Positions 2-35,129 of a DNA stretch of 35,129 bases are shown piece by piece. Both the position numbers and the translations under genes were made by a program. The notes beneath the pieces were generated by a model. It made no database searches and was not told the DNA's origin. It saw only the letters and a list, made by a program, of their open reading frames with translations. This stretch comes from Candidatus Micrarchaeota archaeon. Lineage in GTDB: Archaea; Micrarchaeota; Micrarchaeia; Micrarchaeales; CABMGC01. The stretch is taken from positions 1 through 35,129 of the forward strand of contig DAHXKV010000002.1 of the NCBI GenBank assembly GCA_027366155.1, given 5' to 3'. Position 1 is the stretch's first letter, and the number at the start of each line of letters is the position of its first letter.

Positions 2-2443
2 TTCAACAACTACTGGAACTTCGCAGGAACAAGCCTTCCTACGGGCTGGACCTCGGCAACAACGCCAGGCTCAGGAAACACGGTAACAGTCAGCAACGGC
101 CTGCAGTTATATGTCTCCGGAGGTCCATCAAGCGGCGGAAGTCAGCAACCGGCATACGCCTATACTATGTACACAACTCCAATATCCAACTCAAACACCA
201 TGGTGGAAGAAGCCTCTGGATACCTGAACAACGACTATGTTCCAGGATACGACTATGTTGTCTTCTCTCCAACAGGATACTTCACCGAAACAACCGGAAT
301 CACTACAAGCAATCCCCTCTCCGTATTTGACCAGTACAAAGGACTAACCCTTCAGGAGGTGAGCGGTGGACAGAACTTCTACATGCAGGACAACAGCGGA
401 ACAGTTACTTACCTTTCTGCACCACCATGGATATCCAATCAGAACCCCCCTCTCTCAGTCTATTCAACCGTAATCGAGAACAGCTCGATAACGGGAAGCA
501 GCAGCGACTTTGCATACCTCAATTATACCGAAATCGGCAGCATATCCGCAAGCACGCCAAGCAGCAGCTATGTAGGAACCGGGCTAACCTTGGATTTCGA
601 TAACGGCCCCGCGCAGGAAAACCTTTACTGGATACGCACCAGGGACCTTCCCCCTAACGGCGTGATGCCTGTTGTTATCATAGGCTCCCAGTCTCAAGCC
701 TCAGACGTATTCGACCTAAGCGGACATAATTACACCGGTACTGGAACCTACGTTTCTCTAACTGCAAATCCAAACTCATCAATTTATTTTGGAGGTATTT
801 CAAAGCCGAGCAACAGCGGGAACCAGATCACCTTGAAGCTTCCTACCGGAATATCTTATTTTGTCCCAGTAAACATAATAAACTCCCAATCAATAAGCTC
901 GTCGAATAACTTCCAGCAGATGGTTACTGTCGACAGCGCAGCATACTCGTCGTACGAAGCTTCAAACCTCCAGAACATTGAGTTCTTCTACGCAAACGGC
1001 ATCATAATAAACTCATGGCTCGAGAGCGGCAACTCTAACGCCGCAACCAATACAATATACTGGCTGAAGATAGGCCCGCAGATACCTGCCTCGAACCGCC
1101 TCACAGTATACATGGGCTTCGCCTCTCAGTCAACAAACCTCTTCAACACTGCAACCACCGGCGAAGCACCGGAGCTGACCTGTTCCAACCCCTATGTTAC
1201 GGCAAAATGCTCCAACTATGCAGAGTACGACAACGGAGCAAACGTTTTCAATTTCTACACCAACTTCGCCGGTTCAAGCCTCCCATCCAACTGGAAAGAC
1301 ATCAATGGTGTGCAATACGTTGTAGCCAACGGCATCCAGATTACTGGCTATCCGAATGGCAATTCATACATAAACGCAACAATACCTGCATTCCAGCAGG
1401 GCAATGTAATCGATGCTTTAACTATCTTCTCGCCTTCTTATGATGAAAACTTTGAATTCGGAGGCATAGGCAACGGGGGCATTCAAGGCGGCAACGTGCT
1501 CGGGCTTTACGGGTTTGGCGCAACCGGCGAAGGCTACGAGCCGTTGTTCGCTTCTAGCTCCGCATCTGTTGGAACTAACTATCCATATCCCCCAACTGCA
1601 AATGCCCCACAGGTCTTTTCGGTCGTCTACAATGCAAGCATTGTCAATGACGGCATATACGACACAGTCTCTCTATGGAACTATACGAATCCGTATCCGT
1701 ACCCGGGCCAATATGGAGCCTCATATCTCTATCCTTCCGGAAATCCGATGTTTCCTGCTGTGGCTGGAACCTACTACGGGGCGCAAAATCCAACAGACCA
1801 GAATACTACATGGATAAGGGTGAGGACAAACCCTCCAAAAGGAGTCATGCCCTCTGTCACATTCGGGCCGGTGAGTTCCTACAAGACACTGTCCCTATAT
1901 TCCCTTTCGGGATCTGTCATTTCGCTACCGTCAAACAGCTTTTCCTCCAACTCCATATTCATAGAGCCGCAGAACACTGGCATGACTGCCTCATTGAACT
2001 TCATGATGTCCGAACAGCAGTCCTCCGAGGCTTCAGCAAATGCAGTCATCCTCTCGACAAACAGCAATGCCCTCTGCGGCTACGCGCTCACCATCGCATC
2101 CTCCAATTCGATTGACATGTCGGACAACTGCGGCGATTCCTACATTGGGACATACTCGTTCAAGCCGGATACATGGTACAACCTTGCGGTAACTATCTCT
2201 CCGGGCAGCAATGAACTCGAAACGTATTACGTTGACGGAACCGAGGTCAGCCAGGGGGCAAGCCCCTCATGGAACTCGGGAAACCTCTGGACAACCCTCT
2301 TCATCGGCGGGAACTTTGTCGGAGACATATACGGCATGCAGCTTTACAACTCAAGCCTCTCTCCGCAGCAGGTCTACCAACTGTATTCAGACACTCCGCA
2401 GTCGTACACTATTCAGACTGCCCAGCTCTCAAATGCGCCTTGA
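2..2443 (+). CDS. Large surface protein, 5'-truncated: two DUF2341-like/lectin-like modules plus a C-terminal LamG (ConA-like) domain
   Basis: Frame is open from base 2 (FNNYWNFAGTSLPTGW...), so the start lies outside the window. Module 1 ends WIRTRDLPPNGVMP. Module 2 runs FQQMVTVDS...IEFFYANG...SWLESGNSN...WIRVRTNPPKGVMPSVTFG. The C-terminus WYNLAVT...YYVDG...FVGDIYGMQLYNSSLSPQQVYQLY fits Laminin_G_3. Confidence 0.85.
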   Translation, partial: FNNYWNFAGTSLPTGWTSATTPGSGNTVTVSNGLQLYVSGGPSSGGSQQPAYAYTMYTTPISNSNTMVEEASGYLNNDYVPGYDYVVFSPTGYFTETTGITTSNPLSVFDQYKGLTLQEVSGGQNFYMQDNSGTVTYLSAPPWISNQNPPLSVYSTVIENSSITGSSSDFAYLNYTEIGSISASTPSSSYVGTGLTLDFDNGPAQENLYWIRTRDLPPNGVMPVVIIGSQSQASDVFDLSGHNYTGTGTYVSLTANPNSSIYFGGISKPSNSGNQITLKLPTGISYFVPVNIINSQSISSSNNFQQMVTVDSAAYSSYEASNLQNIEFFYANGIIINSWLESGNSNAATNTIYWLKIGPQIPASNRLTVYMGFASQSTNLFNTATTGEAPELTCSNPYVTAKCSNYAEYDNGANVFNFYTNFAGSSLPSNWKDINGVQYVVANGIQITGYPNGNSYINATIPAFQQGNVIDALTIFSPSYDENFEFGGIGNGGIQGGNVLGLYGFGATGEGYEPLFASSSASVGTNYPYPPTANAPQVFSVVYNASIVNDGIYDTVSLWNYTNPYPYPGQYGASYLYPSGNPMFPAVAGTYYGAQNPTDQNTTWIRVRTNPPKGVMPSVTFGPVSSYKTLSLYSLSGSVISLPSNSFSSNSIFIEPQNTGMTASLNFMMSEQQSSEASANAVILSTNSNALCGYALTIASSNSIDMSDNCGDSYIGTYSFKPDTWYNLAVTISPGSNELETYYVDGTEVSQGASPSWNSGNLWTTLFIGGNFVGDIYGMQLYNSSLSPQQVYQLYSDTPQSYTIQTAQLSNAP
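911..1164 (+). repeat. Copy A of conserved surface-protein constant block
   Basis: Aligns without gaps to 31549-31802 (about 16 mismatches in 254 by hand count) and to the reverse complement of 34285-34538. Confidence 0.95.
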
Positions 2444-2451
2444 GCCACTGC

Positions 2452-3333
2452 CTAACTTTTTGGGAGAACAAAGGCGTATCCCAGTGCCATGAATATGAGC
2501 TTGGCAACAAGGTAGTTCGGTGCAACAATCCCTCCAATGGGCAGGAGCTCGGTGAAATCCATGCCTATTGTTTCCTTACGGCTCAGCACCCCTCTCAGTA
2601 TGGAGGTTAGCTCTCCAAAGCGCAGGCCGTCAGGCTCCGGGGTCCCTGTGCTCGGCATCTCGCTTGGGTCCAGCACATCTAAGTCTATTGTAAGGTATAT
2701 TCTATCGCGCGTGTTCCTGCAGATTCTCTCGACTATCTCATCGGTATTCATCGCGCGCATATCCTTCCTGAAGAGCATTCTCCCGCCGAGATTCCTCGCA
2801 TCCTCCATGCTCACGCTTCTGACACCTACGCTGTATACGCTGCCGCAGATCTCCATTGACCTGGCGGTAACGCACGCATGCGAATACCTGCTTCCCATGT
2901 ACTCGTTCCTGGAGTCGGAATGGGCATCGAAATGCAAAACGCTGAACTCCCTTGACTTTTCGGCAAGCGCCATCTGCGCGCCAACTGTTACGGAATGCTC
3001 GCCGCCGATGAGCAGGGGTATTTTCTTGTCGGCAACTATGTTGGAAACCTCCTTCTTTATCCTCAGGATAGTCTCTTCTGCAGAATTTACGTTTGGCTCG
3101 AGCTCGTCGAGCGTGTATATGCCCAGCTCCGTCACGTCGGCGTCAAGCTCCTCGCTGTAGAACTCCATGTTCCTGCTTGCCTCTATGACTGCATGCGGCC
3201 CCTCCCTCGCGCCTGCACGGTAGCATGTGGTGGAATCATAAGGCACAGGCAGCACTGCGACCCGTGCATCCTTGTAATCAAGCCCGCGCACGCCAAAAAG
3301 CGTGTATGGCGGCATTGCATTCAGTATCTCCAT
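2452..3333 (-). CDS. speB: Agmatinase (ureohydrolase family)
   Basis: Motifs VPYDSTT, GAREGP, GGEHS, DAHSD, DLDVLDP, TGTPEPDG. Start moved to MEILNAM at 3333. Confidence 0.92.
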   Translation of the reverse strand: MEILNAMPPYTLFGVRGLDYKDARVAVLPVPYDSTTCYRAGAREGPHAVIEASRNMEFYSEELDADVTELGIYTLDELEPNVNSAEETILRIKKEVSNIVADKKIPLLIGGEHSVTVGAQMALAEKSREFSVLHFDAHSDSRNEYMGSRYSHACVTARSMEICGSVYSVGVRSVSMEDARNLGGRMLFRKDMRAMNTDEIVERICRNTRDRIYLTIDLDVLDPSEMPSTGTPEPDGLRFGELTSILRGVLSRKETIGMDFTELLPIGGIVAPNYLVAKLIFMALGYAFVLPKS

Positions 3334-3443
3334 TAAAACGATATTATATTGCCGGTCAAGGTCTAAAAAGCTAATGCAGCATCCACGAGCCAATGTTTAT
3401 AATTATGAAGCGCCATAGGATAATCTGTGAATGGGGCATCTCC

Positions 3444-4559
3444 ATGAACGGGAACAACTGCCAACGCAGAAGCATCACGCCAAACAGGCACGGCGCACTC
3501 ATATTCCTAATACTGTCAGTGCTCGTGCTGCCGCTGGCATACGCGCAGGCGGCCACAGCAATACAGTCCCAGATATGCGGCATAATCTCGATAATAAGCT
3601 CGGTAGTAGGCATACTGGCCATATTCCTCTTCGTAGTCGGCGCCCTCCTCTACTCATTAGCGCACATCTTCCCTGCCGCAGGCAACCTCAAGGGCAGCGC
3701 ACAGGGCTGGGGCATCGGTATGATAATAGGCGGGATAATCGGCATAGTCCTATACATACTCTCCTCATTCATAATCTACAGGCTTGCTTCATTCAGTGGC
3801 AACAGCAGCATACCTGCAATCACCCAGGTTGACTGCAACTCGCAGGCAACGACCACTGCCGCATCGTCTGCCCAACAGCCTCCTCCGGTATCGGTACTCT
3901 CTCAAACAAATTCCACCTCAAAGGCCGCCCGGTCTGGTGCTGGGGGCCTATATGCAATAAACAGCAAGAGCACCTCTGCGCCTCTCCAGTCTGCCAGCAT
4001 GCCACGATGCCAATACTACGGCTCCCAGGTAATAAACGGCGACTTCGGCTACGGAAATTATTCGGGATGGACCGAATCGGGCACTGGCTTCGGCTCCTCT
4101 CCTGTTAACCTGAGCGTTGCGGATTCTGAAGGAAATTACTACCTGGGGAAATGGTCCGGATATTCGGGGGCTTACTTTGCGACTACCTTCTCTAAAACGG
4201 CTTCTGAGTCGCCGGCCAGCCTGACTTCAGAGCCCTTCCTTGTGACTGCCCCATACCTCAACTTCAAGATAATCTCCCCGTACAATCTGGGGATATACCT
4301 GGAGGTTCTATCCTCAAACTCCGTCCTGCTCACCATTCACTACAACACGACAAATGGCCAGGGTTCGTATCCTCCTGGCACGTTTGCCAACGCAAGCATA
4401 TACCTGGGATCACTGATGTGCAGAAATGCAAGCATATCCATAGTCTCACAGTCAGCCGGAAGCCCAGGAGGCAGCCAGTTCATAGCCGTTGGCGACTTCC
4501 ATCTGAGCAACTATTCCGACTCAACGCCGGGCATACTCGAAAACAGCACTGTATCATAG
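3444..4559 (+). CDS. Membrane protein with a VirB2/TrbC-pilin-like N-terminus, S/T/A/P linker and C-terminal carbohydrate-binding-like jelly-roll domain
   Basis: Signal-like segment ending AYA-QA, two hydrophobic helices separated by HIFPAAGNLKGSAQGW, then NGDFGYGNYSGWT...SEPFLVTAPYLNF. TTTATAAT at about 3396. Start position uncertain. Confidence 0.6.
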   Translation: MNGNNCQRRSITPNRHGALIFLILSVLVLPLAYAQAATAIQSQICGIISIISSVVGILAIFLFVVGALLYSLAHIFPAAGNLKGSAQGWGIGMIIGGIIGIVLYILSSFIIYRLASFSGNSSIPAITQVDCNSQATTTAASSAQQPPPVSVLSQTNSTSKAARSGAGGLYAINSKSTSAPLQSASMPRCQYYGSQVINGDFGYGNYSGWTESGTGFGSSPVNLSVADSEGNYYLGKWSGYSGAYFATTFSKTASESPASLTSEPFLVTAPYLNFKIISPYNLGIYLEVLSSNSVLLTIHYNTTNGQGSYPPGTFANASIYLGSLMCRNASISIVSQSAGSPGGSQFIAVGDFHLSNYSDSTPGILENSTVS

Positions 4560-4663
4560 GCAGACGTGCTGCATTCGCATCAAAGCATATGCATGCTTCC
4601 TGCAGATGCCCCGGCTGGCCTACAGGCTTAATGCTTTAAAACCTTACATGCCCTATATAACGC

Positions 4664-5308
4664 ATGGACCTGCTCTCGAAATCTATAATAGCCGCAGCAT
4701 TCATAGTGGCGCTAATCTTCGCAGGCTATTATGTAATAGGTCATGTCTCATTCAGCAGGCAGGTCACAGAGCAGCAGGCAGTCTCACTGGTGATGCACGA
4801 CTTGCAGAACTCCTATCCAAACGCGCTGATAAACATCACAAACGTAACTCCTTCAGAATACCCCGGCAGCTGGCATCTTCTCGCATCAATAATCTTCAAT
4901 TCCACCTCGCCGTGCCCCTCGTACTACATCTATTCATTCGACTATCCAAAATACGGGTTTGTCTCAAGGATGGAAAACACTTATACCTCGGGATGCGAGG
5001 TGCTCGGAAGCTCCGGCGGCGGAAATGCGATCGGATCATACCCTGCCGCGATAACAGTCTCCTACGAGCACAGGAACTACACTGTACTGGGTCCGTTCAT
5101 AGAGAAGTATGGATTTGCCAACGTGACTGCGCACGCCACCTACTACCGATTCATCGATATACCTGGATGGAGCTGCGCAATAAGCGACTGCAACAACGTC
5201 TGGGTGGTGAATTACACTGCAGCAGGCCCTCCACAGCACAGCGTTGAGATATTCCTCTCGCAGGTAAACGGCTCAGTCCTCGCGCAGCTTCCCTCAAACT
5301 CTACCTGA
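4664..5308 (+). CDS. Hypothetical membrane-anchored extracellular protein
   Basis: N-terminal TM helix, several NxS/T sequons, Cys pairs. Confidence 0.7.
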   Translation: MDLLSKSIIAAAFIVALIFAGYYVIGHVSFSRQVTEQQAVSLVMHDLQNSYPNALINITNVTPSEYPGSWHLLASIIFNSTSPCPSYYIYSFDYPKYGFVSRMENTYTSGCEVLGSSGGGNAIGSYPAAITVSYEHRNYTVLGPFIEKYGFANVTAHATYYRFIDIPGWSCAISDCNNVWVVNYTAAGPPQHSVEIFLSQVNGSVLAQLPSNST

Positions 5309-5312
5309 ATCC

Positions 5313-5789
5313 TCAGGCGACAATCCGCCTGTGCATGCGCACCTGCCCGTCTCCCGCGGCTCCCTTCCTTTCCAAGACCTTGAAGCCTTTCCTGTAGAAA
5401 AAAGCCGCGGCACCGGCATTCGAGTCCATGACCTCTGCATAAGCCTCATCAACGCCCATTTTAATTGCCTCTTCGAGAGAGGCCATGAGCAGCATGCTGC
5501 CAATGCCTTTTCTCCTCTCCCCACGCGCAACCAGTATGCCCACAATCCCTCCCGCGGCTCCCTCCTTCACTATCTCGCACTCGCCGATTATCCTGCCGCT
5601 CTCTTCAGCGACAAGATCGACCATCTCTCCAGCCATGATGCCTACCAGCTTTGCCTTGAAAATTTCAGAGAAGCTCTTCCTGTCCTTTATCCTTCCCGGC
5701 ACCAGCGCATCGGGTCTTTCTCCCATCATCTCCTTTACAAGAGAAAAAATACCGTCAGCGTCACCGAAGTCAAGCCTCCGTATCTCCAT
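5313..5789 (-). CDS. GNAT family N-acetyltransferase
   Basis: Acetyl-CoA motif A VARGERRKGIGSML and N..A..FFYRKGF. Confidence 0.88.
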   Translation of the reverse strand: MEIRRLDFGDADGIFSLVKEMMGERPDALVPGRIKDRKSFSEIFKAKLVGIMAGEMVDLVAEESGRIIGECEIVKEGAAGGIVGILVARGERRKGIGSMLLMASLEEAIKMGVDEAYAEVMDSNAGAAAFFYRKGFKVLERKGAAGDGQVRMHRRIVA

Positions 5790-5848
5790 CTTACCAGTTC
5801 AGATGATCCAAGACAAGTCTTTTAATCTTATTATTCCTATGCTTCTTC

Positions 5849-6043
5849 ATGGCAATGAATGCCCTGGCTGCAAAGCGTATGCTTAAGGATTCCGGCGCGA
5901 AGAGGGTAAGCGCAGATGCCGCCGAAGAGCTGGCCGAGGCAGTAAACAAGTACGCCTATTCCATAGCTAAAAAGGCGGTGAGCCTCTCTGCACATGCAAA
6001 GCGGCGCACGGTGAAGAAGGCTGACATTGAGCTTGCAAAATAA
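5849..6043 (+). CDS. Archaeal histone (HMf family)
   Basis: [20 protein letters not shown]...[17 protein letters not shown] histone fold. TTTTAAT box about 25 bp upstream. Confidence 0.93.
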
Positions 6044-6047
6044 GCAG

Positions 6048-6332
6048 CTAAGCTGCAAGCATGCCCATGGCCTTGAGGATGGCCATCGTTCCAACTGCAG
6101 GAAGGCCGAATATCGCCGTTGCTATTATGACTGGAAGTACCAGCGGTATTGCAATGCCGAAGAAATAGTTCAGGGCGAAAATGGCAATGAAGCCCAGTAT
6201 GCTGTTTATGACTATGCCGAAGACCCACTTCAGTATTCCCTTGCCTATCTTGAGTATAAAGTATATGAGCCCTAAGATGACCAGCGCGACAATCGCATAG
6301 GCGACGAGGCTCATCATGCTGGGCAATGCCAT
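6048..6332 (-). CDS. BofA-like small membrane protein (pro-sigmaK processing inhibitor family)
   Basis: Three hydrophobic segments with INSILG...N...G..IP....TAIFGLPAVG pattern. Confidence 0.75.
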   Translation of the reverse strand: MALPSMMSLVAYAIVALVILGLIYFILKIGKGILKWVFGIVINSILGFIAIFALNYFFGIAIPLVLPVIIATAIFGLPAVGTMAILKAMGMLAA

Positions 6333-6343
6333 TACATCACAAG

Positions 6344-6370
6344 TATTAAATAGCTGGAAACGATTAATAA
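6344..6370. promoter_or_regulatory. Divergent TATA-like boxes for rnpB (+) and the BofA-like gene (-)
   Basis: ATTAAATA at 6345-6352 lies about 25 bp before the RNA 5' end. TTATTAAT on the minus strand (6363-6370) lies about 30 bp before ATG 6332. Confidence 0.55.
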
Positions 6371-6373
6371 CCC

Positions 6374-6608
6374 TGTGGTGTGCGGATGGCTTACGGTCAA
6401 CATGACTGAGGAAGCTCTCTCCATGCTAAGGTCGCGAGGCCCAAGGCCCCATTCGGAGCAGAAACGAACCGCTGCGGCAAAACGGCTATGACAATACGAG
6501 CCGCCGGTGCGGATGAAACGTGCCGATGCGCGCCCGATGTGCATGCAAGGCAAAACGCCGCTTAGTCGAATGCCATCTAAAACAGAAGAGGGGCTACGGC
6601 ACACCACA
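6374..6608 (+). ncRNA. rnpB: RNase P RNA, compact type-M-like
   Basis: Perfect 10 bp P1 (TGTGGTGTGC/GCACACCACA). P2 GATGGC/GCCATC. CR-I GAGGAAGCTCTCTCC (6408-6422) pairs with CR-V AACAGAAGAGGGGCTA (6581-6596). CR-II GCAGAAAC, CR-III GATGAAAC and the GCAAG junction are present. Confidence 0.93.
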
Positions 6609-6736
6609 CAATTCCGCATCTTCTCCTAGCACTGCATAAGAGCACCAGCAGGCAGCCAATGCCACTAACGCTTAATAACTTTCTCATGGAAATCAATACC
6701 AGCAAGGGCCCTGCACGGGCCTGAAAAGATGATTGT

Positions 6737-7156
6737 ATGGGTTTTGGAGGGATTGGGAGTTTGTTCGAAGAAATAAGCGGTGACGTCCAGCAGGGAAAAT
6801 CGATGCTTGGCGGTGCAGTTCCGGGGGCGAACACTGCCCAATACATGCAGCAGTCCTCGCAGCAGGCATCTTCCCAGCAGAGCGGCTCGGCTTCAACAGA
6901 CCAGCTCATGTTCGCCGCACTAACCGGAGACATAAAGACGATAAAGACCTTCCTTATCAGCAACCCGGACATAAATACAAAGGACAAGTCGGGACGCACA
7001 GCGCTCATATATGCTGCAATAGGCGCGAGCTCCGAGGCAATCTCATTCCTGCTGCAGAACAAGGCAGACCCTTCACTTATGGACAACTATGGGAAGACTG
7101 CGAAGGAGTATGTGCAGTTTATAGTGCCAAACCTGGTCAAGCTCTTTCCTGCCTAG
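6737..7156 (+). CDS. Ankyrin repeat protein with Q/S-rich N-terminal region
   Basis: LMFAALTGD...DINTKDKSGRTALIYAA...LLQNKADPSLMDNYGKTA. Confidence 0.9.
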   Translation: MGFGGIGSLFEEISGDVQQGKSMLGGAVPGANTAQYMQQSSQQASSQQSGSASTDQLMFAALTGDIKTIKTFLISNPDINTKDKSGRTALIYAAIGASSEAISFLLQNKADPSLMDNYGKTAKEYVQFIVPNLVKLFPA

Positions 7157-7159
7157 CCT

Positions 7160-8044
7160 CTACCTGTTCTCCTCCAGCATTCCGAGTATCTGTTCCTTGG
7201 TCGGGTTCCCCTGCTTAACCAGAGGCCCGTTCTTAAGCGTTATGTCCAGCTCCTCGTAAGAAGGCCTGTTGTTCTGGTAGAAAAGCCCTATCGGTATCTT
7301 CTCCCAGTTAGTCTGGAAGTCCTCCACTGCCTTTCCAAGCGCCTTTCCCAGGTCTGAAGGATCATGATTCGACTGGTCAAGCTTGTATATCCTGGGGCGG
7401 AACCAATCGTATGTATTGTCATGGTTGAATGTAACGCATGGGCTGAAAACATCAACCAGCGCAAAGCCCTTGTGCATTATTGCACCCTTTATCATCTCTG
7501 CAAGGTGGACTGTGTCTCCAGAGAAGCCCCTGGCAACGTACGTTGCGCCTGCGCTTATGGCAAGGGCAAGCGGATTGACTGGCATCTCTATGGCGCCGAA
7601 AGGCGTCGACTTGGTCTTGTGGCCCATCATCGCCGTAGGCGAGGTCTGCCCTGTAGTGAGTCCGTACGTCTCGTTATCCATCACTATGTATGTGAGGTTT
7701 ATGTTCCTCCTGGCCGTGTGCACCAGATGGCCTACGCCTATGCCATATCCGTCGCCGTCTCCGCCTGTGCCTATTACTGTGAGGTCATGGTTAGCAAGCT
7801 TCGCGCCGCTTGCTACAGGGAGCAGCCTTCCGTGAAGGCTGTGCATTCCGTATGTGCTGAAAGGCTGCGGCATAGAAGAACTGCACCCTATTCCCGAGAC
7901 TATCATCGCGTTGCTCTTGTCTACCTTAAGGTCCGTAAGGGCCTTCGTTATTGCGGCATATACTCCAAAGTCACCGCATCCCGGGCACCAGATAGGCTTT
8001 ACTCCTGATGAATACACCTGTTTTGTAGTCGCTTCTATTACCAT
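7160..8044 (-). CDS. korB: 2-oxoacid:ferredoxin oxidoreductase beta subunit
   Basis: WCPGCGDFG, SGIGCSS, GGDGD TPP motif, DNETYGLTTGQTSPT, SPCVTFN. Confidence 0.95.
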   Translation of the reverse strand: MVIEATTKQVYSSGVKPIWCPGCGDFGVYAAITKALTDLKVDKSNAMIVSGIGCSSSMPQPFSTYGMHSLHGRLLPVASGAKLANHDLTVIGTGGDGDGYGIGVGHLVHTARRNINLTYIVMDNETYGLTTGQTSPTAMMGHKTKSTPFGAIEMPVNPLALAISAGATYVARGFSGDTVHLAEMIKGAIMHKGFALVDVFSPCVTFNHDNTYDWFRPRIYKLDQSNHDPSDLGKALGKAVEDFQTNWEKIPIGLFYQNNRPSYEELDITLKNGPLVKQGNPTKEQILGMLEENR

Positions 8045-8048
8045 TGCA

Positions 8049-24702: not shown

Positions 24703-24772
24703 AGCAAATCCTTCTGCCGCCGATACCTATAGGTTAGCAATGTTTTATAAACTTATATTGTGAGATATAACG

Positions 24773-24819: not shown

Positions 24820-24856
24820 CACGTTGCCAATTAATTGTATGAAATAACGGGATTGA

Positions 24857-26509: not shown

Positions 26510-26516
26510 TGGTGTA

Positions 26517-26858
26517 ATGATGAACAAGACGATAATCGCGATAATAATCGTTCTGGCAGTAGCTGCAGTTGCGGCTATATTTGCATTTGGAATAAAACCT
26601 GCTTCACACCAGGTTCCTCCTGCCAATGCAAATAACACCGGGCAGGCAACCACCGTCCCGATAAATTCGGGCTCAACTAAAAATGCAACCCCAGCACAGC
26701 AGAACTACACTTCTCCGGCAAACCAGACATTTAATTCAACATTCAACTCAATATCCAACTCAACGCTTCCAAACCCGCGGTTTAACGGAACACCTGTGGA
26801 GCCTCCTGCACAGAATGCGAGCCTTCTCAGCAATGGAAAAATTCCTGCGCAGCCGTAA
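26517..26858 (+). CDS. Small membrane-anchored low-complexity (N/P/T-rich) protein
   Basis: GGTG SD-like element before the ATG; one TM helix; dense sequons. Confidence 0.75.
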   Translation: MMNKTIIAIIIVLAVAAVAAIFAFGIKPASHQVPPANANNTGQATTVPINSGSTKNATPAQQNYTSPANQTFNSTFNSISNSTLPNPRFNGTPVEPPAQNASLLSNGKIPAQP

Positions 26859-26982
26859 TTCTGCGCAACACACGCAGGTCTGTAGTCCTTCTCTTTCAGC
26901 TGCAGGCAACACGCCGCCAGATCCTGCAACATGCGGCAGATGGTAAAAGAAGAGATAAAAGGCTTGGCTACAATCTAATAGT

Positions 26983-28299
26983 ATGCTCATCTTCAGGATA
27001 AACTACTTCCTGCTCCCAACAGAGATATGGATAGTTGTCACCACTACAATAGTGATATGGATAACGCGCATATATCTAAATTCATTCCTCGCGCTAAGGA
27101 AGGGCAAAGTGAAAGAGCGCAAGCCTTCAACCGCCGTGCTCCACGGCTCGGAGCCCCTTGTAAGCATAATACTCCCCACGTACAACGAGTCCAGGGTGAT
27201 AGGCAGGCTCCTCTCGGCAGTCACCAAAATAGACTACAGGAACTTCGAGGTTATAGTCGCTGACGACTCTACCGATGGAAAGACAATGGAGGTCCTCGGC
27301 CAATGGCAGGAAAAAGGAATCAGGGTAATACACAGGGACTCGAGGAAGGGCTTCAAGGCAGGCGCGCTGAACAACGCAATGCTCCACATCTCACCCAAAT
27401 CCGAATACATCCTCATATTCGATGCCGACTACGTGCCCCAAAAGGAGATCATCTGGCAGATGCTTGGAGATTTCTCCTCAAAAGAGATAGCTGCGGTACA
27501 GGGCTACACCAAGCACACGCTCAACGCCTCCAAAAACATCTGGACGAAGGCTGTCTCGATAGGCTTCTCGGCATATTCGCTGGTAGACATACCAATACGC
27601 AAGAAGCTAAATGGCTTCATCCCTCTCTTCGGGAGCGTCACCATGGTCTCTCGGCAGGCACTTTCAGAGGTTAACGGCTTCTCCGAGGACTCTATAACAG
27701 AGGATTACGAGCTCGCCTGCAAGCTGGAGGCATGCGGCTACAGTATCATGTTCGATGAAGGCATAGCCGTACCTGCAGAGTGCCCTGACTCGTTCAGGGT
27801 ATTGCTAAAACAGCAGATGCGCTGGGCAGAGGGAATAACACGCGACACTAAGAACCACCTGCGCAGGCTGCTCTCCAGCAAAAAACTCAACCTGATGAAA
27901 AAATTTGACTATGTTTATTACGGATTCAGCTCTCTCAACGGAATAATAGGTACGGCGGCATACTCGCTGACCGCATTTGTCTTCATGGTCCAGCACCACC
28001 TGATACTGCATTCACTAGGGGTAGACAGCACATTCGTCACGGCTCTCGGCCCCTATGGCAACTTCCTGCTCAACGTTGCGCCAGGATATGTTGCGTTGGG
28101 CCTGATATCCATGGTAATTGTGGGTCTGTATCGCGAAGGCAGGCTGCACGATGTGCTCTGGGTTGCATACTTTTATCTTGTAACGCTCCTGCTGGCGCCG
28201 TTTATAGCGATAAGCGGTATACGCGGCCTCCTTCTGAAGAAGGGTTCCTGGTCGCGCACAAAGAAAACCGGGGAAGTCATTCGCGAAGTGCACCCTTAG
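26983..28299 (+). CDS. Processive GT2 glycosyltransferase (CesA/Csl-like)
   Basis: PTYNE, DDS, FKAGALN, DAD, TED and QQMRW motifs; C-terminal TM helices. Confidence 0.93.
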   Translation: MLIFRINYFLLPTEIWIVVTTTIVIWITRIYLNSFLALRKGKVKERKPSTAVLHGSEPLVSIILPTYNESRVIGRLLSAVTKIDYRNFEVIVADDSTDGKTMEVLGQWQEKGIRVIHRDSRKGFKAGALNNAMLHISPKSEYILIFDADYVPQKEIIWQMLGDFSSKEIAAVQGYTKHTLNASKNIWTKAVSIGFSAYSLVDIPIRKKLNGFIPLFGSVTMVSRQALSEVNGFSEDSITEDYELACKLEACGYSIMFDEGIAVPAECPDSFRVLLKQQMRWAEGITRDTKNHLRRLLSSKKLNLMKKFDYVYYGFSSLNGIIGTAAYSLTAFVFMVQHHLILHSLGVDSTFVTALGPYGNFLLNVAPGYVALGLISMVIVGLYREGRLHDVLWVAYFYLVTLLLAPFIAISGIRGLLLKKGSWSRTKKTGEVIREVHP

Positions 28300-29533
28300 C
28301 CGGATGTCTATTCTGTAAAACCTTCCTTCCAAGCATCGGATAAGCGCTTCTTAGAAGCGCGCCTGTCATCGTCTGATCTACTAAAAAACCAAGCCCGTGT
28401 ATCCTGAAATCCTCTTCGGATACCTTTGATATCCTATTCAGATCCCTAGCGCTTATGCCGAGTTCCGATTCAACAAGCCACCTGGTGGCGCTTCTTGCAA
28501 TCTCAGGGTTTTTGCGGGCGAATTCACTTATCTCCTTCAATTCCCACGGCAGTATGCGGTGCTCCGGAAACGCATCGTTCAGTGCAAGGAAAACGTTCCC
28601 TCCATAATATTCTGAAAACATATCCGCCAAGCACCCTCTGGACAGGTCACTGCTTGATATCCCGAGGACTGACCTCCTATCCGAGACGTCAACCCCGGAG
28701 ACCTCCGCTGCCCATCTTATTGCGCGTCCCCTCTTCTCCTTGGGCTCGAAGAATTCACTGCTTAGGTGCTTCATCTCCCATTCCATTATCTTATATTCGG
28801 GATAGGAAGCATTGACTGCTTCATAAACATTACCACCAAAAAACCGGTATAGCAGTATCCTGTGCCAGCGCCTGAAATGCCTCTCATGCACTGAGAGCAG
28901 TCCTTCTCTTTTCTGCTTCTCTCCGAGTACATATTTGGCCAGCATAAGCCTTATTTCTTTCACAGCATTTTTCCTTTCTTCCAGCACATCCGGCTGGGCA
29001 AGATATTCCTTGACTGTTTCTGGGCTTGCGCTTTCAGTGTCCAAACTCCTTCCTGCGCCTTCTGCATCTGTATTTTCTGCTCCTGCGCTCTTGCTGCCCC
29101 GCAGCGCTGCGTGCATCCTAGCATAATACTCTGCGCTGGCCGGAACAGATTTTCCTCCCTGCGCGGTTGCCATCCTTGAAAACAGCCTGACCATGCTCTT
29201 AGCCGTCTCCATTGGGGACTTCCTTGATTCGCCTTTTATGTTTGTGTGCGCGCCAAAACCCACTGCGAGCTCTAGCATTCCTATCAGCTGCTCTGTCTGC
29301 GGCAGTGTAATCAGGAAGTTTACAAGCTGGAGGTTCTCGTTTTCCCCAAATTTACCATACTTCGCAAGCCATCTATCCTTGCTGAGAATATCTGCAAAGG
29401 CTGCCACATCTTTCCTTCTGGCAGCTTCCTCCACAAGCGCTGCAACAGGGTTCCTGCCTCTAATCCCCTGCCCTGCATTTGCATTTTCGGCTACAATGCC
29501 ACCCATACGATCAAAATTCAATATATCTGCCAT
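28277..29533 (-). CDS. Hypothetical protein: degenerate ankyrin-like N-terminus plus DUF4046-like repeats
   Basis: LELAVGFGAHTNIKGESRKSPMETA; repeats FFGGNVYEAVNASYPEYKIMEWEMK...AIRW and YYGGNVFLALNDAFPEHRILPWELK...ATRW. Confidence 0.7.
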   Translation of the reverse strand: MADILNFDRMGGIVAENANAGQGIRGRNPVAALVEEAARRKDVAAFADILSKDRWLAKYGKFGENENLQLVNFLITLPQTEQLIGMLELAVGFGAHTNIKGESRKSPMETAKSMVRLFSRMATAQGGKSVPASAEYYARMHAALRGSKSAGAENTDAEGAGRSLDTESASPETVKEYLAQPDVLEERKNAVKEIRLMLAKYVLGEKQKREGLLSVHERHFRRWHRILLYRFFGGNVYEAVNASYPEYKIMEWEMKHLSSEFFEPKEKRGRAIRWAAEVSGVDVSDRRSVLGISSSDLSRGCLADMFSEYYGGNVFLALNDAFPEHRILPWELKEISEFARKNPEIARSATRWLVESELGISARDLNRISKVSEEDFRIHGLGFLVDQTMTGALLRSAYPMLGRKVLQNRHPAKGALRE

Positions 29534-29711
29534 GGTATTTAGACATTGGGCTTTTAGGGCATCTACTTAAAAATACAACTGCAATCCCCGGCCTGCAACG
29601 GATTTGTTGAATATGTGTCTTTTTGAGCTATCTTATCTAACAGACTCGCCTGCAACAAAACTCCTAAATATGAGCAATACAAAACAATCCTATTGTAATG
29701 ATGGTCATTGC

Positions 29712-30560
29712 ATGAAGCTAACCACAATATCTACATGGTCGAGTATTCGGGCTTCAGGAAGCGTAAGCAATCCAGAGCCAAAAGACATAGTAAGAATGAT
29801 AGCCACTGGCGACACAGACTCGCTCAGGTCTCTCGGCCCAGAAATGCTTGGGCACAATTATTCTAAATTTGGTTACGGGAATTCCCTGCTAAAGGTTATA
29901 ATCAGGATATCGCCCCCAGGGTCCATGAATGAAGCTTTGCAGATAGCACTAAAGGCAGGCGCAGAACCTTCCACCGAAGAGATAGTCGCGCTCAATAAGA
30001 AGATTGCATACTTTAGGTCCAAGCGAATTGTGCACACTGCCAAAAACATAGACAGAGAAGGCAATCTGGCAGACAGCGTGCTGGCGCTTAAGCGCGCGAT
30101 GGCAAGCAAACAGTCTGCGGATGCCATCGCCGCAGGAAGCCAGATGCCTGCAACACACACCGAAACGGCCAGAGGAAGCTATGAATCGGCCTCAGGCCTG
30201 CGTATATCCGCAATAAGAAGGGCACTTGACAATGCTGATGTCCAGGGACTATCCCGGGCGCTCTCCACACTCTCCAAGTCAACCGGCACCACAGGCCCAC
30301 TTTCTGCGGATTATGGCGACGGGATGCAAAAAGCCTCCCTGCTAAGCAGGATAGTCGACCTGCACTTCAGAAATGGGCTTGATCCAAGTCCGACAATCAA
30401 ACTTGTTGAGCTGGCGCTGAGCCGTGGAGCAGTTCCTGACTACGACCTCCTCCGCAGAGTGGCTGCAATGAATAACGCCGCGGTCAATTTCAAAGAAGGG
30501 GATCCGGCAAAGATTTTCCCTGAAACCCTTTTCACGGTTCTCCTTCCGATGCGCAAATAA
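29712..30560 (+). CDS. Hypothetical protein with two degenerate ankyrin-like modules
   Basis: IATGDTDSL...LQIALKAGAEPS and ALDNADVQGL...VELALSRGAVPD. Start uncertain. Confidence 0.6.
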   Translation: MKLTTISTWSSIRASGSVSNPEPKDIVRMIATGDTDSLRSLGPEMLGHNYSKFGYGNSLLKVIIRISPPGSMNEALQIALKAGAEPSTEEIVALNKKIAYFRSKRIVHTAKNIDREGNLADSVLALKRAMASKQSADAIAAGSQMPATHTETARGSYESASGLRISAIRRALDNADVQGLSRALSTLSKSTGTTGPLSADYGDGMQKASLLSRIVDLHFRNGLDPSPTIKLVELALSRGAVPDYDLLRRVAAMNNAAVNFKEGDPAKIFPETLFTVLLPMRK

Positions 30561-30613
30561 TGCCATTTAATATATCTGAACAGGCGCAATATAAGAATTG
30601 AAAGAGTGTTGTA

Positions 30614-31141
30614 ATGCAAACCACAAGAACCAGATCTCCTGAAATGCAGCATGTACCATCGGCTACGGGTTCATTAACCTCAGGCAACCAGTTGACTTCC
30701 AGAAAGCTTCCTTCCTTCATGCTTGTAGGCATGGCTGTTGCAGGGCTTTCACTCAACGGATGCGCACAAAATCTCGGAAACACGACCAAGGTAGATATAG
30801 GCCGGAAAACGATGTACGTGCGTGTACAGAATCCCAGCTACGGGGGCATGAGCTCTTTAAACTTCCACCGGTTTCATTACGAGGTAACTGCAAAACGATT
30901 TGGCTCAACCTGTATCACATACGCCGCTGATTTGGATGCAACTTTCCCCCCAAACCTCGGAGGCAGGGTGCCGTTTGCAATGCCTGAATTCTACTACCCG
31001 AAGGAACTGCGCCGTGCGATAATTGACAATACCGACCAGACAATCGGGATAATCAGCAGGGCATGCAACCTCGGCCAAATATCAGCGCATGTCAAGATTA
31101 CCGGATATCCTGCTGAGCTAATAGGCTTCAAGAGGAACTAG
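30614..31141 (+). CDS. Hypothetical putative lipoprotein
   Basis: Hydrophobic stretch followed by lipobox-like LSLNGC; TTTAATAT box upstream. Confidence 0.6.
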   Translation: MQTTRTRSPEMQHVPSATGSLTSGNQLTSRKLPSFMLVGMAVAGLSLNGCAQNLGNTTKVDIGRKTMYVRVQNPSYGGMSSLNFHRFHYEVTAKRFGSTCITYAADLDATFPPNLGGRVPFAMPEFYYPKELRRAIIDNTDQTIGIISRACNLGQISAHVKITGYPAELIGFKRN

Positions 31142-31395: not shown

Positions 31396-32427
31396 ATGGG
31401 AAATAGGTCCTACGTTATAGTGTTACTTGGTATGTTGCTGGCACTGATGCCTGTCCTGAACGCAGCAGGAGCGATCGCTCCCTCTGGAATACTCAAGTAC
31501 GTTCCAATCACCATATCCAATGCGCAGTCCTCAGCCACGCCTCTGAACTTCCAGCAGATGGTTACTGTTGACAGCGCAACATACTCGTCGTACGAAGCTT
31601 CAAACCTCCAGAACATTGAGTTCTTCTACGCAAACGGCATTATAATAAACTCATGGCTCGAGAGCGGCAACTCTAACGCCGCCTCAAGTACCTTATATTG
31701 GCTGAACATAGGCCCGCAGATACCTGCCTCAGGCAGCCTTACAGTATACATGGGCTTCGCCTCTCAGTCAACAAACCTCTTCAACACTGCAACCACCGGC
31801 GAGGCCCCGCAGCTCTCGCCCAGCTACGCCGAGTACGACAACGGCGCAGGCGTATTCAATTTCTACGATGACTTTGCAGGGACGACCCTAAGCTCCAAAT
31901 GGACGCCGTCTTCCCAATTATCCTATTATGTGGACAACGGAATAACGGTAAACGGGCAATCCACTACCTTCCCGTCGGGAATAACTACAAATACCCTAAC
32001 AAACCCCTACACATTCAATGCACCTGGCATAGTTGAGTTCTATGGATATGTAGGAATAGACACATATGGGGAGTCGGAAGGTTTTGCAGGGTCACCAACA
32101 GCCTCTATCTTTACATACGAATATGGTGGCGATCAGTGGTATGCCTGCAACACTTCCACCTGTGCGGGCTTCGGCTCTTTTGGAAATGGGGAAGGCTTAT
32201 ACGGGGCTGAAGTAGAAAGCAATGGCAATGTCTTTTATTACGAGAACTACAACACATACACAGCTACCGAGACCTCATACAACGCCGCGCTATCTCCATT
32301 ATGGTTAACGATCGTCGGAGGCGCCGGCAATGGTGGCAACAATGCCGGACCAGTATACTATATGCGCGAGCGTGCATACCCGCCCAACGGCGTCATGCCT
32401 TCGGTCTCATTCGGATCAATCCAATGA
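31396..32427 (+). CDS. Secreted single-module DUF2341-like surface protein
   Basis: Signal peptide; YVPITISNAQS...FQQMVTVDS...; ends RAYPPNGVMPSVSFG. Confidence 0.88.
   Translation: MGNRSYVIVLLGMLLALMPVLNAAGAIAPSGILKYVPITISNAQSSATPLNFQQMVTVDSATYSSYEASNLQNIEFFYANGIIINSWLESGNSNAASSTLYWLNIGPQIPASGSLTVYMGFASQSTNLFNTATTGEAPQLSPSYAEYDNGAGVFNFYDDFAGTTLSSKWTPSSQLSYYVDNGITVNGQSTTFPSGITTNTLTNPYTFNAPGIVEFYGYVGIDTYGESEGFAGSPTASIFTYEYGGDQWYACNTSTCAGFGSFGNGEGLYGAEVESNGNVFYYENYNTYTATETSYNAALSPLWLTIVGGAGNGGNNAGPVYYMRERAYPPNGVMPSVSFGSIQ
31549..31857 (+). repeat. Copy C of constant block; left arm of a 309 bp inverted repeat
   Basis: About 13 mismatches in 309 (hand count) and no gaps against the reverse complement of 34230-34538. 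Confidence 0.95.
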
Positions 32428-32455: not shown

Positions 32456-33484
32456 TCATTTGTACATTCCCGCAATCCCTCCGAAGGACTCCAGCTGCTT
32501 TCCGGCTTCATCTTCAGAATTGAATATCTCTATCGCTACTCCGTGCCTGTCCGCATCATTCAGAATTTTTTTTATTTCCTCTGTGTTGAGTTTCGAGTCG
32601 TTTACGAGAATCATCTCTATCTTGTAATCGTTCAGATGCTCGCGTATCTTCTCGACGCCGAGGAGCGCTGACCCACTGCGCATGCCCCTGAAAAGTGCAT
32701 CAAGGAGCTCGAACTCCCTTCTGACGTGCTCTGTTTCAAGCATCTTCGAGACTTCATGGCTGCGCACAGCTTCTCTTATGCCCGACCGCTCCGCATCGCC
32801 CACTGGCACATAGACAAGCCTCTTCCCTGTCTCAATCCCTTTGTATTCTACGTATTTCCTTATATCATCCTTGGTGAACCCCGGCCCTGCAATTATGACG
32901 AGTTCGACGTCCATCCTCTTCACTGAATCTATGATGTCTTTGAAATACTTCTCGCGCTGCGCTTCGAAATCCTTCTCCTTCATCCTTTTGCTCAGGTGTG
33001 AAAACAGCTCTCCGGAGAGGTCTATTCCATATCCCCGTATGTATGCCAAGGTTGCCTTTTCGTCATCCACTGCGATGACTCCCAGCCTCGGCCGTTTGGA
33101 ATCAAGAACTGCCTGTCTTATCCTCCTTATTATGAAATCTCCCCAGCCCTCTGGCTTCTCTATCTCAATCTCGTCCAAAGGCCCGACAGTGAGGGTGTGG
33201 TAGCTGTTTACCTGTATATATTCCTCAGGATGGCCCGAGACTATCTTCCCTATTATGCGTAGCCTTCCTGCCCCTCTGTCAAGTTCAGTTTTTTCAACAA
33301 CCAGCCTTACGAACACCTCCTTCTGCTCGCCTTTGTCTGTCTCGCTGGCCTTGAACCTGCGGTAGCTCTTGGAGGAGACATAATTGTCTTTAGATACCAC
33401 CATTGCAAGAAGGTAAAGATCCTCGAATGACTCAGGGACTAGCTTTACTGTGTTTGTTGAATCATAAAACTTTACTGACTTCAT
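32456..33484 (-). CDS. pelA: Pelota (Dom34) ribosome rescue factor
   Basis: LVPESFEDLYLL, RLRIIGKI, YHTL, IIAGPGFTK, AGKQLESFGGIAG. Confidence 0.95.
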   Translation of the reverse strand: MKSVKFYDSTNTVKLVPESFEDLYLLAMVVSKDNYVSSKSYRRFKASETDKGEQKEVFVRLVVEKTELDRGAGRLRIIGKIVSGHPEEYIQVNSYHTLTVGPLDEIEIEKPEGWGDFIIRRIRQAVLDSKRPRLGVIAVDDEKATLAYIRGYGIDLSGELFSHLSKRMKEKDFEAQREKYFKDIIDSVKRMDVELVIIAGPGFTKDDIRKYVEYKGIETGKRLVYVPVGDAERSGIREAVRSHEVSKMLETEHVRREFELLDALFRGMRSGSALLGVEKIREHLNDYKIEMILVNDSKLNTEEIKKILNDADRHGVAIEIFNSEDEAGKQLESFGGIAGMYK

Positions 33485-33617
33485 GGCACTCACGCGCTGA
33501 AACTGATGCGTTATGGGGATATTTAAGGGATTGCCATTTAGCCTTTTTATCTGGCGTTCGGTGGCTTGAACGGCCAGATGGCGCGGCTATCCTCCGTGAA
33601 AGTATTATACTATAAAC

Positions 33618-35129
33618 TTATCCTATGGCTCCAAACGTGACAGAGGGCATTACGCCATTGGGAGGGTAGGCACGGGTGCGGAGCCATTGAAGATTTGCCG
33701 GATACGGATATGTATATGCCTCAGCATAAGCCCCTGATTCAAATATTGCAGGGTAAAGCGGAAGCGATACGGAAGGCGAGGTGAGAGTGCTCCCCAGCTT
33801 TGCATAGTTTGAATAGTAAGCAGAGCTTGAGGCAGAGATGAATGCCACCGACCATATCTGGTTTGCATTTTGGGCTTGGGTGTCGCCGGTGATGCTGTAT
33901 GCAGTACTCTCTGTCTGCGTGCCTTGGAAGTACCCTCCTGGATAAAAACCAGAGCTACTAAACCCTGTGGACAGTGTCATGCCCTGGTAACCGGCTTGAT
34001 TAACTACCGGAACGGTCATCACTCCTATCCCTGTCCAATATATTGATGACGTTTCGTAGAGATTGCCGTAGCCTTCAATCACATTTCCAGGCTGCAAGGC
34101 TGTGCCATACGAGATGTACCCACTGGCTGCCGTTTTTGTAGCGGTAATTCCGTTGTTCACTGTATATGTTATGCCTGTGTTTGTCCATCCGCTCGGCAGG
34201 CTTGCCCCTGCAAAGTTCCAGTAGTTGCTGAATACGTCTGCGCCGTTGTCGTATTCGGCGTAGCTGGGAGAGAGCTGCGGGGCTTCGCCGGTGGTTGCAG
34301 TGTTGAAGAGGTTTGTTGACTGAGAGGCGAAGCCCATGTATACTGTGAGGCTGCTTGAGGCAGGAATCTGCGGGCCTATGTTCAGCCAGTATAAGGTACT
34401 CGAGGCGGCGTTAGAGTTGCCGCTCTCGAGCCATGAGTTTATTATGATGCCATTTGCGTAGAAGAACTCAATGTTCTGGAGGTTTGAAGCTTCGTACGAC
34501 GAGTATGTTGCACTGTCAACAGTGACCATCTGCTGGAAGTCTGAAGGCGTGTTTGAGGACTGGGAGTTCGTGATTGTTATCGGAACGTATGCGGCGATTC
34601 CGGATGGTGTGTTGATGCTGACCTGAATTATGCTGTTTGAGGTGGTTGTAATCAGCGCTGGCGTTTCCGAGTCTATGACGTTTGCATAGAAAGTGTAATT
34701 GCCAAGGGCAGTCTGTTGGTTAGTGTTTAGGAGATAGTTTGAGGAGGAGGCGCCGGATATCTGGGAGAAGGAGTTAGCGCCGGGCGCCTCCTCGTACCAC
34801 TGGTAGGTGTAGGGCGGCAGACCGCCGGTGCTTCCGAGGTAGATTTCCTGCGTCTGGCCCGATTTTATGGAGGAGAATACGGGAAAGATGTTCGAATTGA
34901 GTGGGACGGGCTTGAATGTAACGGTTTCTGAGGAAGTGCATGAGCCGAAAACCGCAATTATGTTTGCGGATCCCGGAGTATTTGAAGAAGCCGAAGAGAG
35001 GGAATTGCCTGCATAGTTTGAATTGGAGTAGAGGCTCTGGAATTCCACATGTGGATCGTTTGAGGAGAACGCGACAGTGGCGCCCGCGATACTCGTCCCG
35101 AGGATGGATACCTGCGCGGCCAGCGGGTC
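33618..35129 (-). CDS. Large surface protein, 5'-truncated: Ig/PKD-like domain plus C-terminal DUF2341-like module
   Basis: Frame is open to the window edge. GGLPPYTYQWY...GNYTFYANVIDS is Ig-like; then YVPITITNSQS...FQQMVTVDS...RAYPPNGVMPSVTFG. Confidence 0.87.
   Translation of the reverse strand, partial: DPLAAQVSILGTSIAGATVAFSSNDPHVEFQSLYSNSNYAGNSLSSASSNTPGSANIIAVFGSCTSSETVTFKPVPLNSNIFPVFSSIKSGQTQEIYLGSTGGLPPYTYQWYEEAPGANSFSQISGASSSNYLLNTNQQTALGNYTFYANVIDSETPALITTTSNSIIQVSINTPSGIAAYVPITITNSQSSNTPSDFQQMVTVDSATYSSYEASNLQNIEFFYANGIIINSWLESGNSNAASSTLYWLNIGPQIPASSSLTVYMGFASQSTNLFNTATTGEAPQLSPSYAEYDNGADVFSNYWNFAGASLPSGWTNTGITYTVNNGITATKTAASGYISYGTALQPGNVIEGYGNLYETSSIYWTGIGVMTVPVVNQAGYQGMTLSTGFSSSGFYPGGYFQGTQTESTAYSITGDTQAQNANQIWSVAFISASSSAYYSNYAKLGSTLTSPSVSLPLYPAIFESGAYAEAYTYPYPANLQWLRTRAYPPNGVMPSVTFGAIG
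34230..34538 (-). repeat. Copy D of constant block; right arm of the inverted repeat
   Basis: Reverse complement matches 31549-31857 and 911-1164. Confidence 0.95.

Follow-up and report, generated by a model that had tools for sequence, protein, structure and literature searches.

In Helicobacter pylori the adhesin paralogues babA, babB and babC lie at separate loci, have near-identical ends and divergent ligand-binding middles, and form chimeras by gene conversion. They encode bacterial outer-membrane proteins, and their switching has been measured experimentally and linked to phase variation. At Neisseria pilE/pilS, a constant N-terminal part is joined to variable cassettes that are moved by gene conversion via short conserved stretches; this system needs silent, promoterless partial copies and one expression locus. 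The general principle of Neisseria pilin antigenic variation is set out in the available part of PMC5422504. Here, a 35,129-nt stretch of archaeal DNA (the window) was analysed, which is the complete contig C52 of a 778-kb, 61-contig, 78%-complete metagenome bin of an ARMAN-type archaeon (G000). Three genes of the window, A, C and D, hold four modules (M1 to M4), each composed of a DUF2341 N-terminal block (N-block) and a concanavalin-like domain. Gene conversion among these surface-protein paralogues is the best and, in our judgement, a quite probable explanation of their mosaic structure. In mode of working, the bab genes are the closest analogue. Compared with pilE/pilS, all four N-blocks lie in full-length open frames with signal sequences, and no silent or promoterless cassette was found by DNA search of the 78%-complete assembly, in which each core is single-copy. 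Since no silent store was found, the locus does not fall under programmed cassette variation of the pilE/pilS type. On the present analysis, paralogous surface-protein genes have here undergone ectopic gene conversion of an ordinary kind, as do the Helicobacter bab genes or the pilin systems.

The archaeal DUF2341 proteins of pilus loci (arCOG03508, Methanococcus Epd-type; PMC4858521) and the LamG expansion of Mia14 (PMC5498576) share the same Pfam domain. According to the available parts of these two papers, they are likewise large secreted or pilin-like proteins with concanavalin-like heads, found in a tiny host-dependent lineage and proposed as adhesins. Makarova et al. (2016, PMC4858521) suggested that DUF2341 proteins act as adhesins at the tips of type IV pili in archaea, and the LamG-like proteins expanded in a cultured ARMAN archaeon lie in some cases beside pilus loci (Golyshina et al. 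2017, PMC5498576). Gene conversion, homogenised N-blocks and cassette exchange are not mentioned in those parts of the papers. Genes A, C and D differ from the DUF2341 pilus-locus genes in that they are surrounded by ordinary genes and do not stand in a pilus operon. Streptococcus sanguinis has modular type IV pilins, namely PilB, which carries a vWA module, and a minor pilin whose module is concanavalin-like. They likewise combine a pilin N-terminus with an adhesive module, but are bacterial and single-copy, and the available parts of the sources report no cassette exchange for them. Phage tail receptor-binding proteins match the fold of the modules (Douge gp20 central fibre, 8zdp, Foldseek E 5.7e-6; TM4 gp23 C-terminal domain, 9n6a, Z 11.6) and are, too, mosaics of conserved adaptors and swapped heads. 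This likeness is one of fold only (7-13% identity), and the modules described here stand in a cellular genome. For the DUF2341/LamG proteins of ARMAN/DPANN archaea, no published description of gene conversion or of cassette exchange was found, supplementary tables aside.

Four modules and their silent-site mosaic

Alignment of the four modules gave the layout constant N-block, F..Y..FAG..L...W, variable core and W.R.R..PP.GVMP; the ends, motifs and orientations assigned to them in the preliminary description were confirmed. Contigs C6(-), C61(-), C52(+) and C4(+) form a chain by exact 141-nt overlaps, and genes cut by the window ends could therefore be read across contigs. The 3′ two thirds of gene A form an open frame at 2..2443 on the plus strand, and its start lies on C61(-). 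Translated across the overlap from C61(-) to C52(+), gene A encodes 1411 aa in the order pilin-like N-terminus, Laminin_G_3 (in the C61 part, E 9.5e-14), M1, M2 and a second, C-terminal Laminin_G_3 (concanavalin-like, PF13385, 1973..2374, plus strand, aa 658-791 of P0001, E 8.1e-11). The F..Y..FAG..W motif, variable concanavalin-like core and W.R.R..PPNGVMP of M1 occupy 2..685 (plus strand); its N-block lies outside the window, at C61:~33-524 (-), with the DNA match at C61:230-449. M2 (857..1873, plus strand) consists of N-block, a private 10-aa insertion, core and C-motif. Gene C (31396..32427, plus strand; 343 aa from ATG, P0004) has M3 (31498..32424, plus strand) as its only module, along with a Sec-type signal peptide. 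Gene D is present with its 3′ part (33618..35129, minus strand) and starts on contig C4; the full protein of 713 aa (696 aa from MKVSK) comprises a pilin-like N-terminus, an Ig-like region and M4 (33621..34589, minus strand). Genes A and D run in opposite orientations, as had been noticed earlier. At the DNA level the N-blocks appear as a direct repeat (841-1140 / 31479-31778, 84% over 300 nt) and two inverted repeats (31480-31889 / 34198-34607, 410 nt, 89%; 812-1176 / 34273-34637, 365 nt, 83%).

Gene C belongs to DUF2341 (Pfam PF10102; 31.8 bits against a cut-off of 23.4, E 2.1e-7). The two N-blocks of gene A scored 23.0 and 19.3 bits, just under the same cut-off. Gene D gave no DUF2341 match in Pfam at E<=0.01, and its N-block is 98% identical in protein to that of gene C. 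An NCBIfam scan of proteins A, C and D gave nothing above cut-off. Elsewhere in the bin, a 1640-aa protein (C17:8044-12966; L075:44-4966) has two more, far more diverged modules, whose N-blocks are 36-38% identical to those of M1-M4 and stand outside the homogenised set; no Pfam match was obtained for it at E<=0.01.

The mosaic was judged by segment-wise silent-site divergence (dS), Fisher tests, orthologue comparison and a tree. N-blocks were compared over a 71-codon (213-nt) core and an 83-codon core. Over the 83 codons the copies are 87-96% identical in DNA with dS of 0.16-0.38, and over the 71 codons 88.7-95.8% identical with dS of 0.20-0.39. The three N-blocks visible in the window had been described as ~94-96% identical; the high identity and its extension to synonymous sites held, and the figures in the 213-nt core are in fact 92.5, 92.5 and 95.8%. 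The homogenised tract corresponds to 31546..31814 in M3 (plus strand) and to 34278..34541 in M4 (minus strand), the latter 96% identical in DNA to the former. In M2 the tract runs from NFQQM to TGEAP (908..1176, plus strand) and is 93% identical to M3 over 269 nt. The whole-genome copy count that had been called for uncovered a fourth N-block, that of M1 on C61, which is 89% identical in DNA; like the others it is part of a full-length gene.

Outside these tracts the modules have diverged widely. Pooled conserved flanks gave dS of 0.94-2.4, and separate flanking motifs dS of ~0.4-1.8 or saturation. The difference between N-block core and flanks was significant by Fisher test in 6/6 pairs (p = 4.8e-7 to 3.9e-3). 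Among codons for identical residues, 11-21% differ in the N-block core and 47-67% in PPNGVMP, in agreement with the earlier remark that this motif is diverged at synonymous sites; outside the N-block core as a whole the value is 22-76% (mostly >40%). The M2 tract has dS of 0.16-0.19 to M3 and M4, and its flanks 1.2-1.8 or values not computable for saturation. The cores of M1-M4 are only 14-25% identical in protein, and the statement that they barely align thus stood. The conservation of the N-block core in DNA exceeds what constraint on the protein would demand.

A rival account of this pattern places the constraint on the nucleotides of the N-block themselves, through RNA structure, an overlapping gene or extreme codon preference. 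In its favour, a consensus of 50 homologues shows no protein segment of the family better conserved than the N-block. In a control pair of orthologues from two congeneric genomes (G003:C31 / G005:C6), dS was 0.67 in the N-block, with a non-synonymous divergence (dN) of 0.046, and 0.95 in the core. Since dS between true orthologues is fairly uniform over the module, silent sites of the N-block are under no constraint of their own. When 60 other genomes of the family were searched with the N-block, the highest DNA identity was 71-74%, as against 84-93% within the genome; matches of any kind were obtained in 32/61 genomes, a count that includes G000 and the unpublished G056. In a further control, 11 pilin genes of G000 with a nearly invariant N-terminal helix had a median DNA identity of 71% there. 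No open reading frame (ORF) of >=100 aa lies in another frame over the N-blocks, and the orthologues of M2 have quite different N-blocks (see below). Nucleotide-level constraint was rejected as contradicted by the orthologue control, and is the least credible of the explanations considered.

M2 is a chimera, and it is the recipient. Its core has orthologues in the two congeneric genomes (62% identity to G003:C4, 59% to G005:C6 and 57% to G003:C31), and these share the 10-residue ELTC..C insertion of M2, which is absent from the other modules of this genome. The N-block cores of the same orthologues are only 45, 42 and 42% identical to that of M2 in amino acids, and the N-block core of M2 is 82-92% identical in protein to those of M1, M3 and M4. 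Between M2 and its orthologues core dS is ~2, as compared with 0.16-0.19 for the tract. As the congeneric orthologues match M2 in the core and not in the N-block, the M2 tract 908-1176 was overwritten from a donor of M3/M4 type after the species split. The tract ends differ between modules: M1 diverges after YMGFA, and M2 only after TGEAP. In the next segment M1 and M4 share 84% DNA identity, which M3 and M4 do not. More than one event must therefore have taken place.

A maximum-likelihood tree of 61 N-blocks (92 columns) grouped M1-M4 in one clade with support of 99/96. Its rows are loci fetched as best matches to a G000 protein, with 1-3 copies per genome; matches covering <70 of the 88 query residues were dropped, L013 (from the unpublished G038), L046 and L048 were left out, and for L028, L030 and L031 longer fetches of those loci were used instead. 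The core of M4, when searched, gave as best matches the foreign proteins P0092 and P0064 (38-39% identity, E 1e-25), and its own paralogues ranked 50th, 69th and 85th. The homogenisation is specific to this lineage. The marks of ectopic gene conversion were thus found together: a tract of low silent divergence, saturated flanks, and phylogenies of tract and flank in conflict. The earlier proposal that the N-block is homogenised by recombination was borne out by the silent-site mosaic, the M2 chimera and the genome-specific clade of four N-blocks.

Predicted fold and surface location

An AlphaFold model of the gene C protein, built with 50 homologues, has a pLDDT of 77 and two domains, and is weaker at residues 149-165 and 254-265. 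The N-block (residues ~52-148) is modelled as a small beta-sandwich, with a pLDDT of 93 when modelled alone. For the N-block alone the best structural match (2wyh, Z 5.2, rmsd 2.5, 75 aligned) was below the noise level of the tool, and Foldseek gave no match at E<=1e-3. Residues 171-347 of the model form a jelly roll that belongs to the concanavalin-like fold. Its best match is 3zyp (Z 14.3, rmsd 3.0, 168 aligned), followed by 3i4i (Z 13.4) and Emp47p (2a6z, Z 11.9); a lectin-like fold of the core had been suspected, and these matches agree with it. Foldseek with the gene C model returned 14 matches at E<=1e-3, and the matches to the jelly roll also list GH16 enzymes, L-type lectins, CBM66 and phage receptor-binding domains. 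From the two-domain model, the jelly roll would open with the F..Y..FAG..W strand and close with the W.R.R..PPNGVMP strand, and its remainder would be what was called the hypervariable core. Across the 50 homologues only F172, R344, P347 and P353 are invariant in the jelly-roll columns. No acidic residue of the jelly roll is invariant or 90% conserved among them, and catalytic residues of the GH16 type were accordingly not found. A binding role therefore fits better than an enzymatic one. The model thus supports a lectin-type (concanavalin-like) fold for the core, and sugar binding is suggested by fold similarity.

Genes A and D open with a Q-x-S/A-x-E motif followed by a hydrophobic helix. 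[KR]-x-Q-x-S/A-x-E with a hydrophobic helix is what we take to be the archaeal type IV pilin-like class III signal peptide. The Q-x-S/A-x-E motif recurs in 15 frames of G000, 7-39 residues past the preceding in-frame stop. The bin also encodes one prepilin peptidase (Peptidase_A24, 33.5 bits) and two T2SSE ATPases. Within the order the module family is widespread and multi-copy, with matches in 34/41 genomes, the unpublished G038 included, and up to 19 matches per genome; 496 proteins at E<=1e-3 were obtained among 5321 candidates. From fold, motif, pilus genes and the published proposals, the best inference is that A, C and D are adhesins. They would be displayed on or near type IV pilus-like fibres, with lectin-type heads that may bind glycans of a host or biofilm, and they could serve in host attachment or virus evasion.

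The 11 pilin-like genes used above as a control (94-309 aa) lie on C3, C17, C23, C27, C30, C35 (two), C42, C44 and C51 (two). They open with a near-identical K/R-x-QSAMEYLMTYGWAIL... helix; the median DNA identity of 71% applies to their first 117 nt, and the remaining protein is 11-90% identical. A pilin family of 11 is large for a genome of <1 Mb.

Core exchange in relatives, strain alleles and rival explanations

Among congeners, the same core type occurs with three types of N-block, and cores only 30% identical follow a single type of N-block (G003:C4 and G005:C3, 83% identical). Block-core pairing is thus not fixed in relatives; fixed pairing had been named beforehand as an outcome that would speak against recombination. 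Along the paralogues dS is uneven. At an orthologous locus of Parvarchaeum-like archaea (6 genomes) the flanks are conserved, and L082 has 79-91% DNA identity to 4 other loci there; the flanks of L082 and of L083, the latter from another species, are 91% and 90% identical in DNA. The first core of the L082 gene gave no DNA alignment to any of the 4 other loci compared. Nucleotides 592-1289 of this gene are 98.4% identical (687/698) to a module of a different, 2732-aa gene of the same metagenome-assembled genome. The two segments are L082:4592-5289 and L085:4280-4977 (one Parvarchaeum-like assembly), and the N-blocks of the two genes differ. The breakpoints of the L082 cassette lie in the ...TGEAPQ... 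and ...PPNGVMP... motifs. This 698-nt lectin core is a clean cassette conversion. In the pair P0005 and P0006 all but 1-2 residues are common in each flank, and the cores are unalignable. No RVT_1 match was found in the 78%-complete assembly of G000, and the cores differ throughout and not just at adenine-templated sites; no sign of a diversity-generating retroelement was thus obtained.

Alleles and metagenome contigs were compared for the strains of G000. P0124, the gene D allele of an independent public assembly, has 5 differences in 696 residues; 3/5 lie in the N-domain, and all 3 are the residue of M3. The gene D core differs by 1 residue between the two assemblies. P0011 (528 aa, on a 4219-nt contig of another assembly) is a gene D variant that matches over ~487 residues except for 6 substitutions, of which 5 lie in the N-domain and three of those are paralogue residues. 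Beyond YAEYD it is wholly different and stops after another 41 residues; a misassembly, a different junction or a broken allele could each account for it. Logan contigs from 4 runs were mapped at a 92% threshold and are broken up over the N-blocks. Summed word depth of the N-blocks was ~5-7x that of the flanks in most bins (31552-31827 and 34174-34587) in two mine-drainage runs. N-block contigs continue at 34202 and 31612 into sequence that was absent from the bin at <=3 mismatches and may stem from other strains, other species or copies left unbinned. The raised word depth and these continuations indicate that the population has more N-block-bearing genes than the 4 assembled. A variant at 34541-34544 may be due to cross-mapping of paralogues at the 92% threshold. 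One weak joint that skips 100 was seen, with 22 letters on one side. The Joint Genome Institute (JGI) metagenome contigs provided 13 loci with a best identity of 41%, too distant for comparison of alleles. The left end of C52 coincides with the point where N-block and core of M1 meet, which hints at a branch of the assembly graph there, as from strain variants or further copies. Both ends of C52 (window 1-141 and 34989-35129) overlap the neighbouring contigs by exactly 141 nt.

In the explanation that we favour, A, C and D would encode secreted or pilin-anchored surface proteins built of repeated two-domain modules. After the split from the congeners, ectopic homologous recombination would have copied an N-block tract of ~250-270 nt among the four modules, in at least two or three conversion events with different end points. 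The N-blocks would so have become near alike, and the cores and neighbouring conserved motifs would have retained their old, saturated divergence. The same process, breaking in the conserved border motifs, may also move whole cores, which was seen directly only in the sister lineage. Several points weigh against this explanation. In the N-block tree 0/14 other genome groups are monophyletic, the two C17 modules of G000 included, and no cassette transfer was seen in G000 itself. Homogenisation may then be a handful of chance events without a role, and a dS of 0.16-0.38 speaks against a very recent origin of the tracts. Because exact runs of up to 62 nt are common to M3 and M4, P0124 might be a chimera of assembly. 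The contig breaks lie at or near modules, and the block-core pairing of M1 depends on a single 141-nt overlap. For the surface location, Pfam gave no class III signal-peptide family on the first 60 residues of A and D, so that the pilin-like reading of these two genes draws on the motif and its recurrence in the genome.

Could the near-identical N-blocks be chimeric joins made across strains or paralogues during assembly or binning? The DNA comes from a metagenome bin whose contig ends at the M1 block-core junction and inside gene D, and the samples contain more N-block variants. The copies nevertheless differ by 4-13%, and their exact runs of only 47-86 nt are below the 141-nt overlap of the assembly. 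A separate public assembly contains gene D with hardly any change, the unique stretches of C and D are covered by Logan contigs from two runs, mostly in pieces >=95% alike, and the M2 chimera is contained in one contig with its reading frame intact. An artefact of this kind was rejected on the divergence of the copies, the short exact runs, the independent gene D and the in-frame M2 chimera, and appears very improbable. A selected adhesin-shuffling system deserves more weight, and even so is unlikely. Here the N-block and border motifs would be kept as recombination handles, and lectin heads would change scaffolds through conversion or through crossing-over between N-blocks in inverted orientation, those of C/D (2.3 kb apart) or A/D (33 kb apart). 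Heads would pass between the freely secreted scaffold and the pilin-anchored ones, with population-level variation in host binding or virus escape as the result. The varied block-core pairings of congeners are consistent with it, as are the Parvarchaeum-like locus with conserved flanks, unalignable cores and one core copied from a paralogue at 98.4%, and the near-identical flanks around unalignable cores in P0005/P0006. So are the sample N-blocks that run into sequence absent from the bin, with word depth ~5-7x that of the flanks, and the inverted N-blocks that genes C and D carry only 2.3 kb apart. Against this, no silent or promoterless cassettes were found in the 778-kb assembly and every core in it is single-copy, the gene D core is stable between two assemblies (1 residue), and among the genome groups in the tree homogenised N-blocks occur in G000 only. 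The Logan contigs contained no strand-changing joint, and could hardly have shown one. The part of the preliminary description that made the N-block a handle for cassette shuffling is therefore left divided: unfixed pairings in congeners and the core copied in a sister lineage agree with it, but no silent store was found and none of the 14 other groups is homogenised.

ARMAN and other DPANN archaea depend on contact with host cells, and modular pilin-lectin proteins would be leading candidates for host recognition among them. Under gene conversion among the paralogues, parts of such proteins are exchanged by recombination, with constant domains overwritten in G000 and whole lectin heads copied in the sister lineage. 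This offers a testable picture of fast change in binding specificity in very small genomes, and singles out the variable cores for expression and ligand tests. It is also a warning for annotation, as domain trees of the DUF2341-lectin family do not track gene or species trees. If shuffling were true, a host-dependent archaeon could aim its attachment at new targets or escape viruses, in an archaeal parallel to the variation of adhesins and pilins in bacteria.

Neighbouring genes

The best homologues of the window are labelled Candidatus Micrarchaeaceae, Parvarchaeota or Parvarchaeum, and the runs containing the sequence are labelled mine drainage metagenomes. Between the adhesin genes, ordinary genes fill ~29 kb (2452..31141), where a Pfam scan of 30 ORFs gave matches for 18. 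They include agmatinase/arginase, pyruvate:ferredoxin oxidoreductase, HMG-CoA reductase, Sua5, an aminotransferase and a glycosyltransferase, and this stretch is outside the adhesin system. A housekeeping gene of the Pelota/eRF1 family (32456..33493, minus strand; Pfam eRF1_1/2/3) lies between the inverted N-blocks of genes C and D. At 16270-17868 (plus strand) a HerA/DUF87-type P-loop ATPase with weak TraG/TrwB-like matches is encoded, and at 23536-24702 (minus strand) a homologue of presenilin/signal-peptide peptidase. GGDEF domains are uncommon in archaea; a 221-aa ORF at 12676-13341 (plus strand) has a clear GGDEF diguanylate-cyclase domain (E 7.6e-26).

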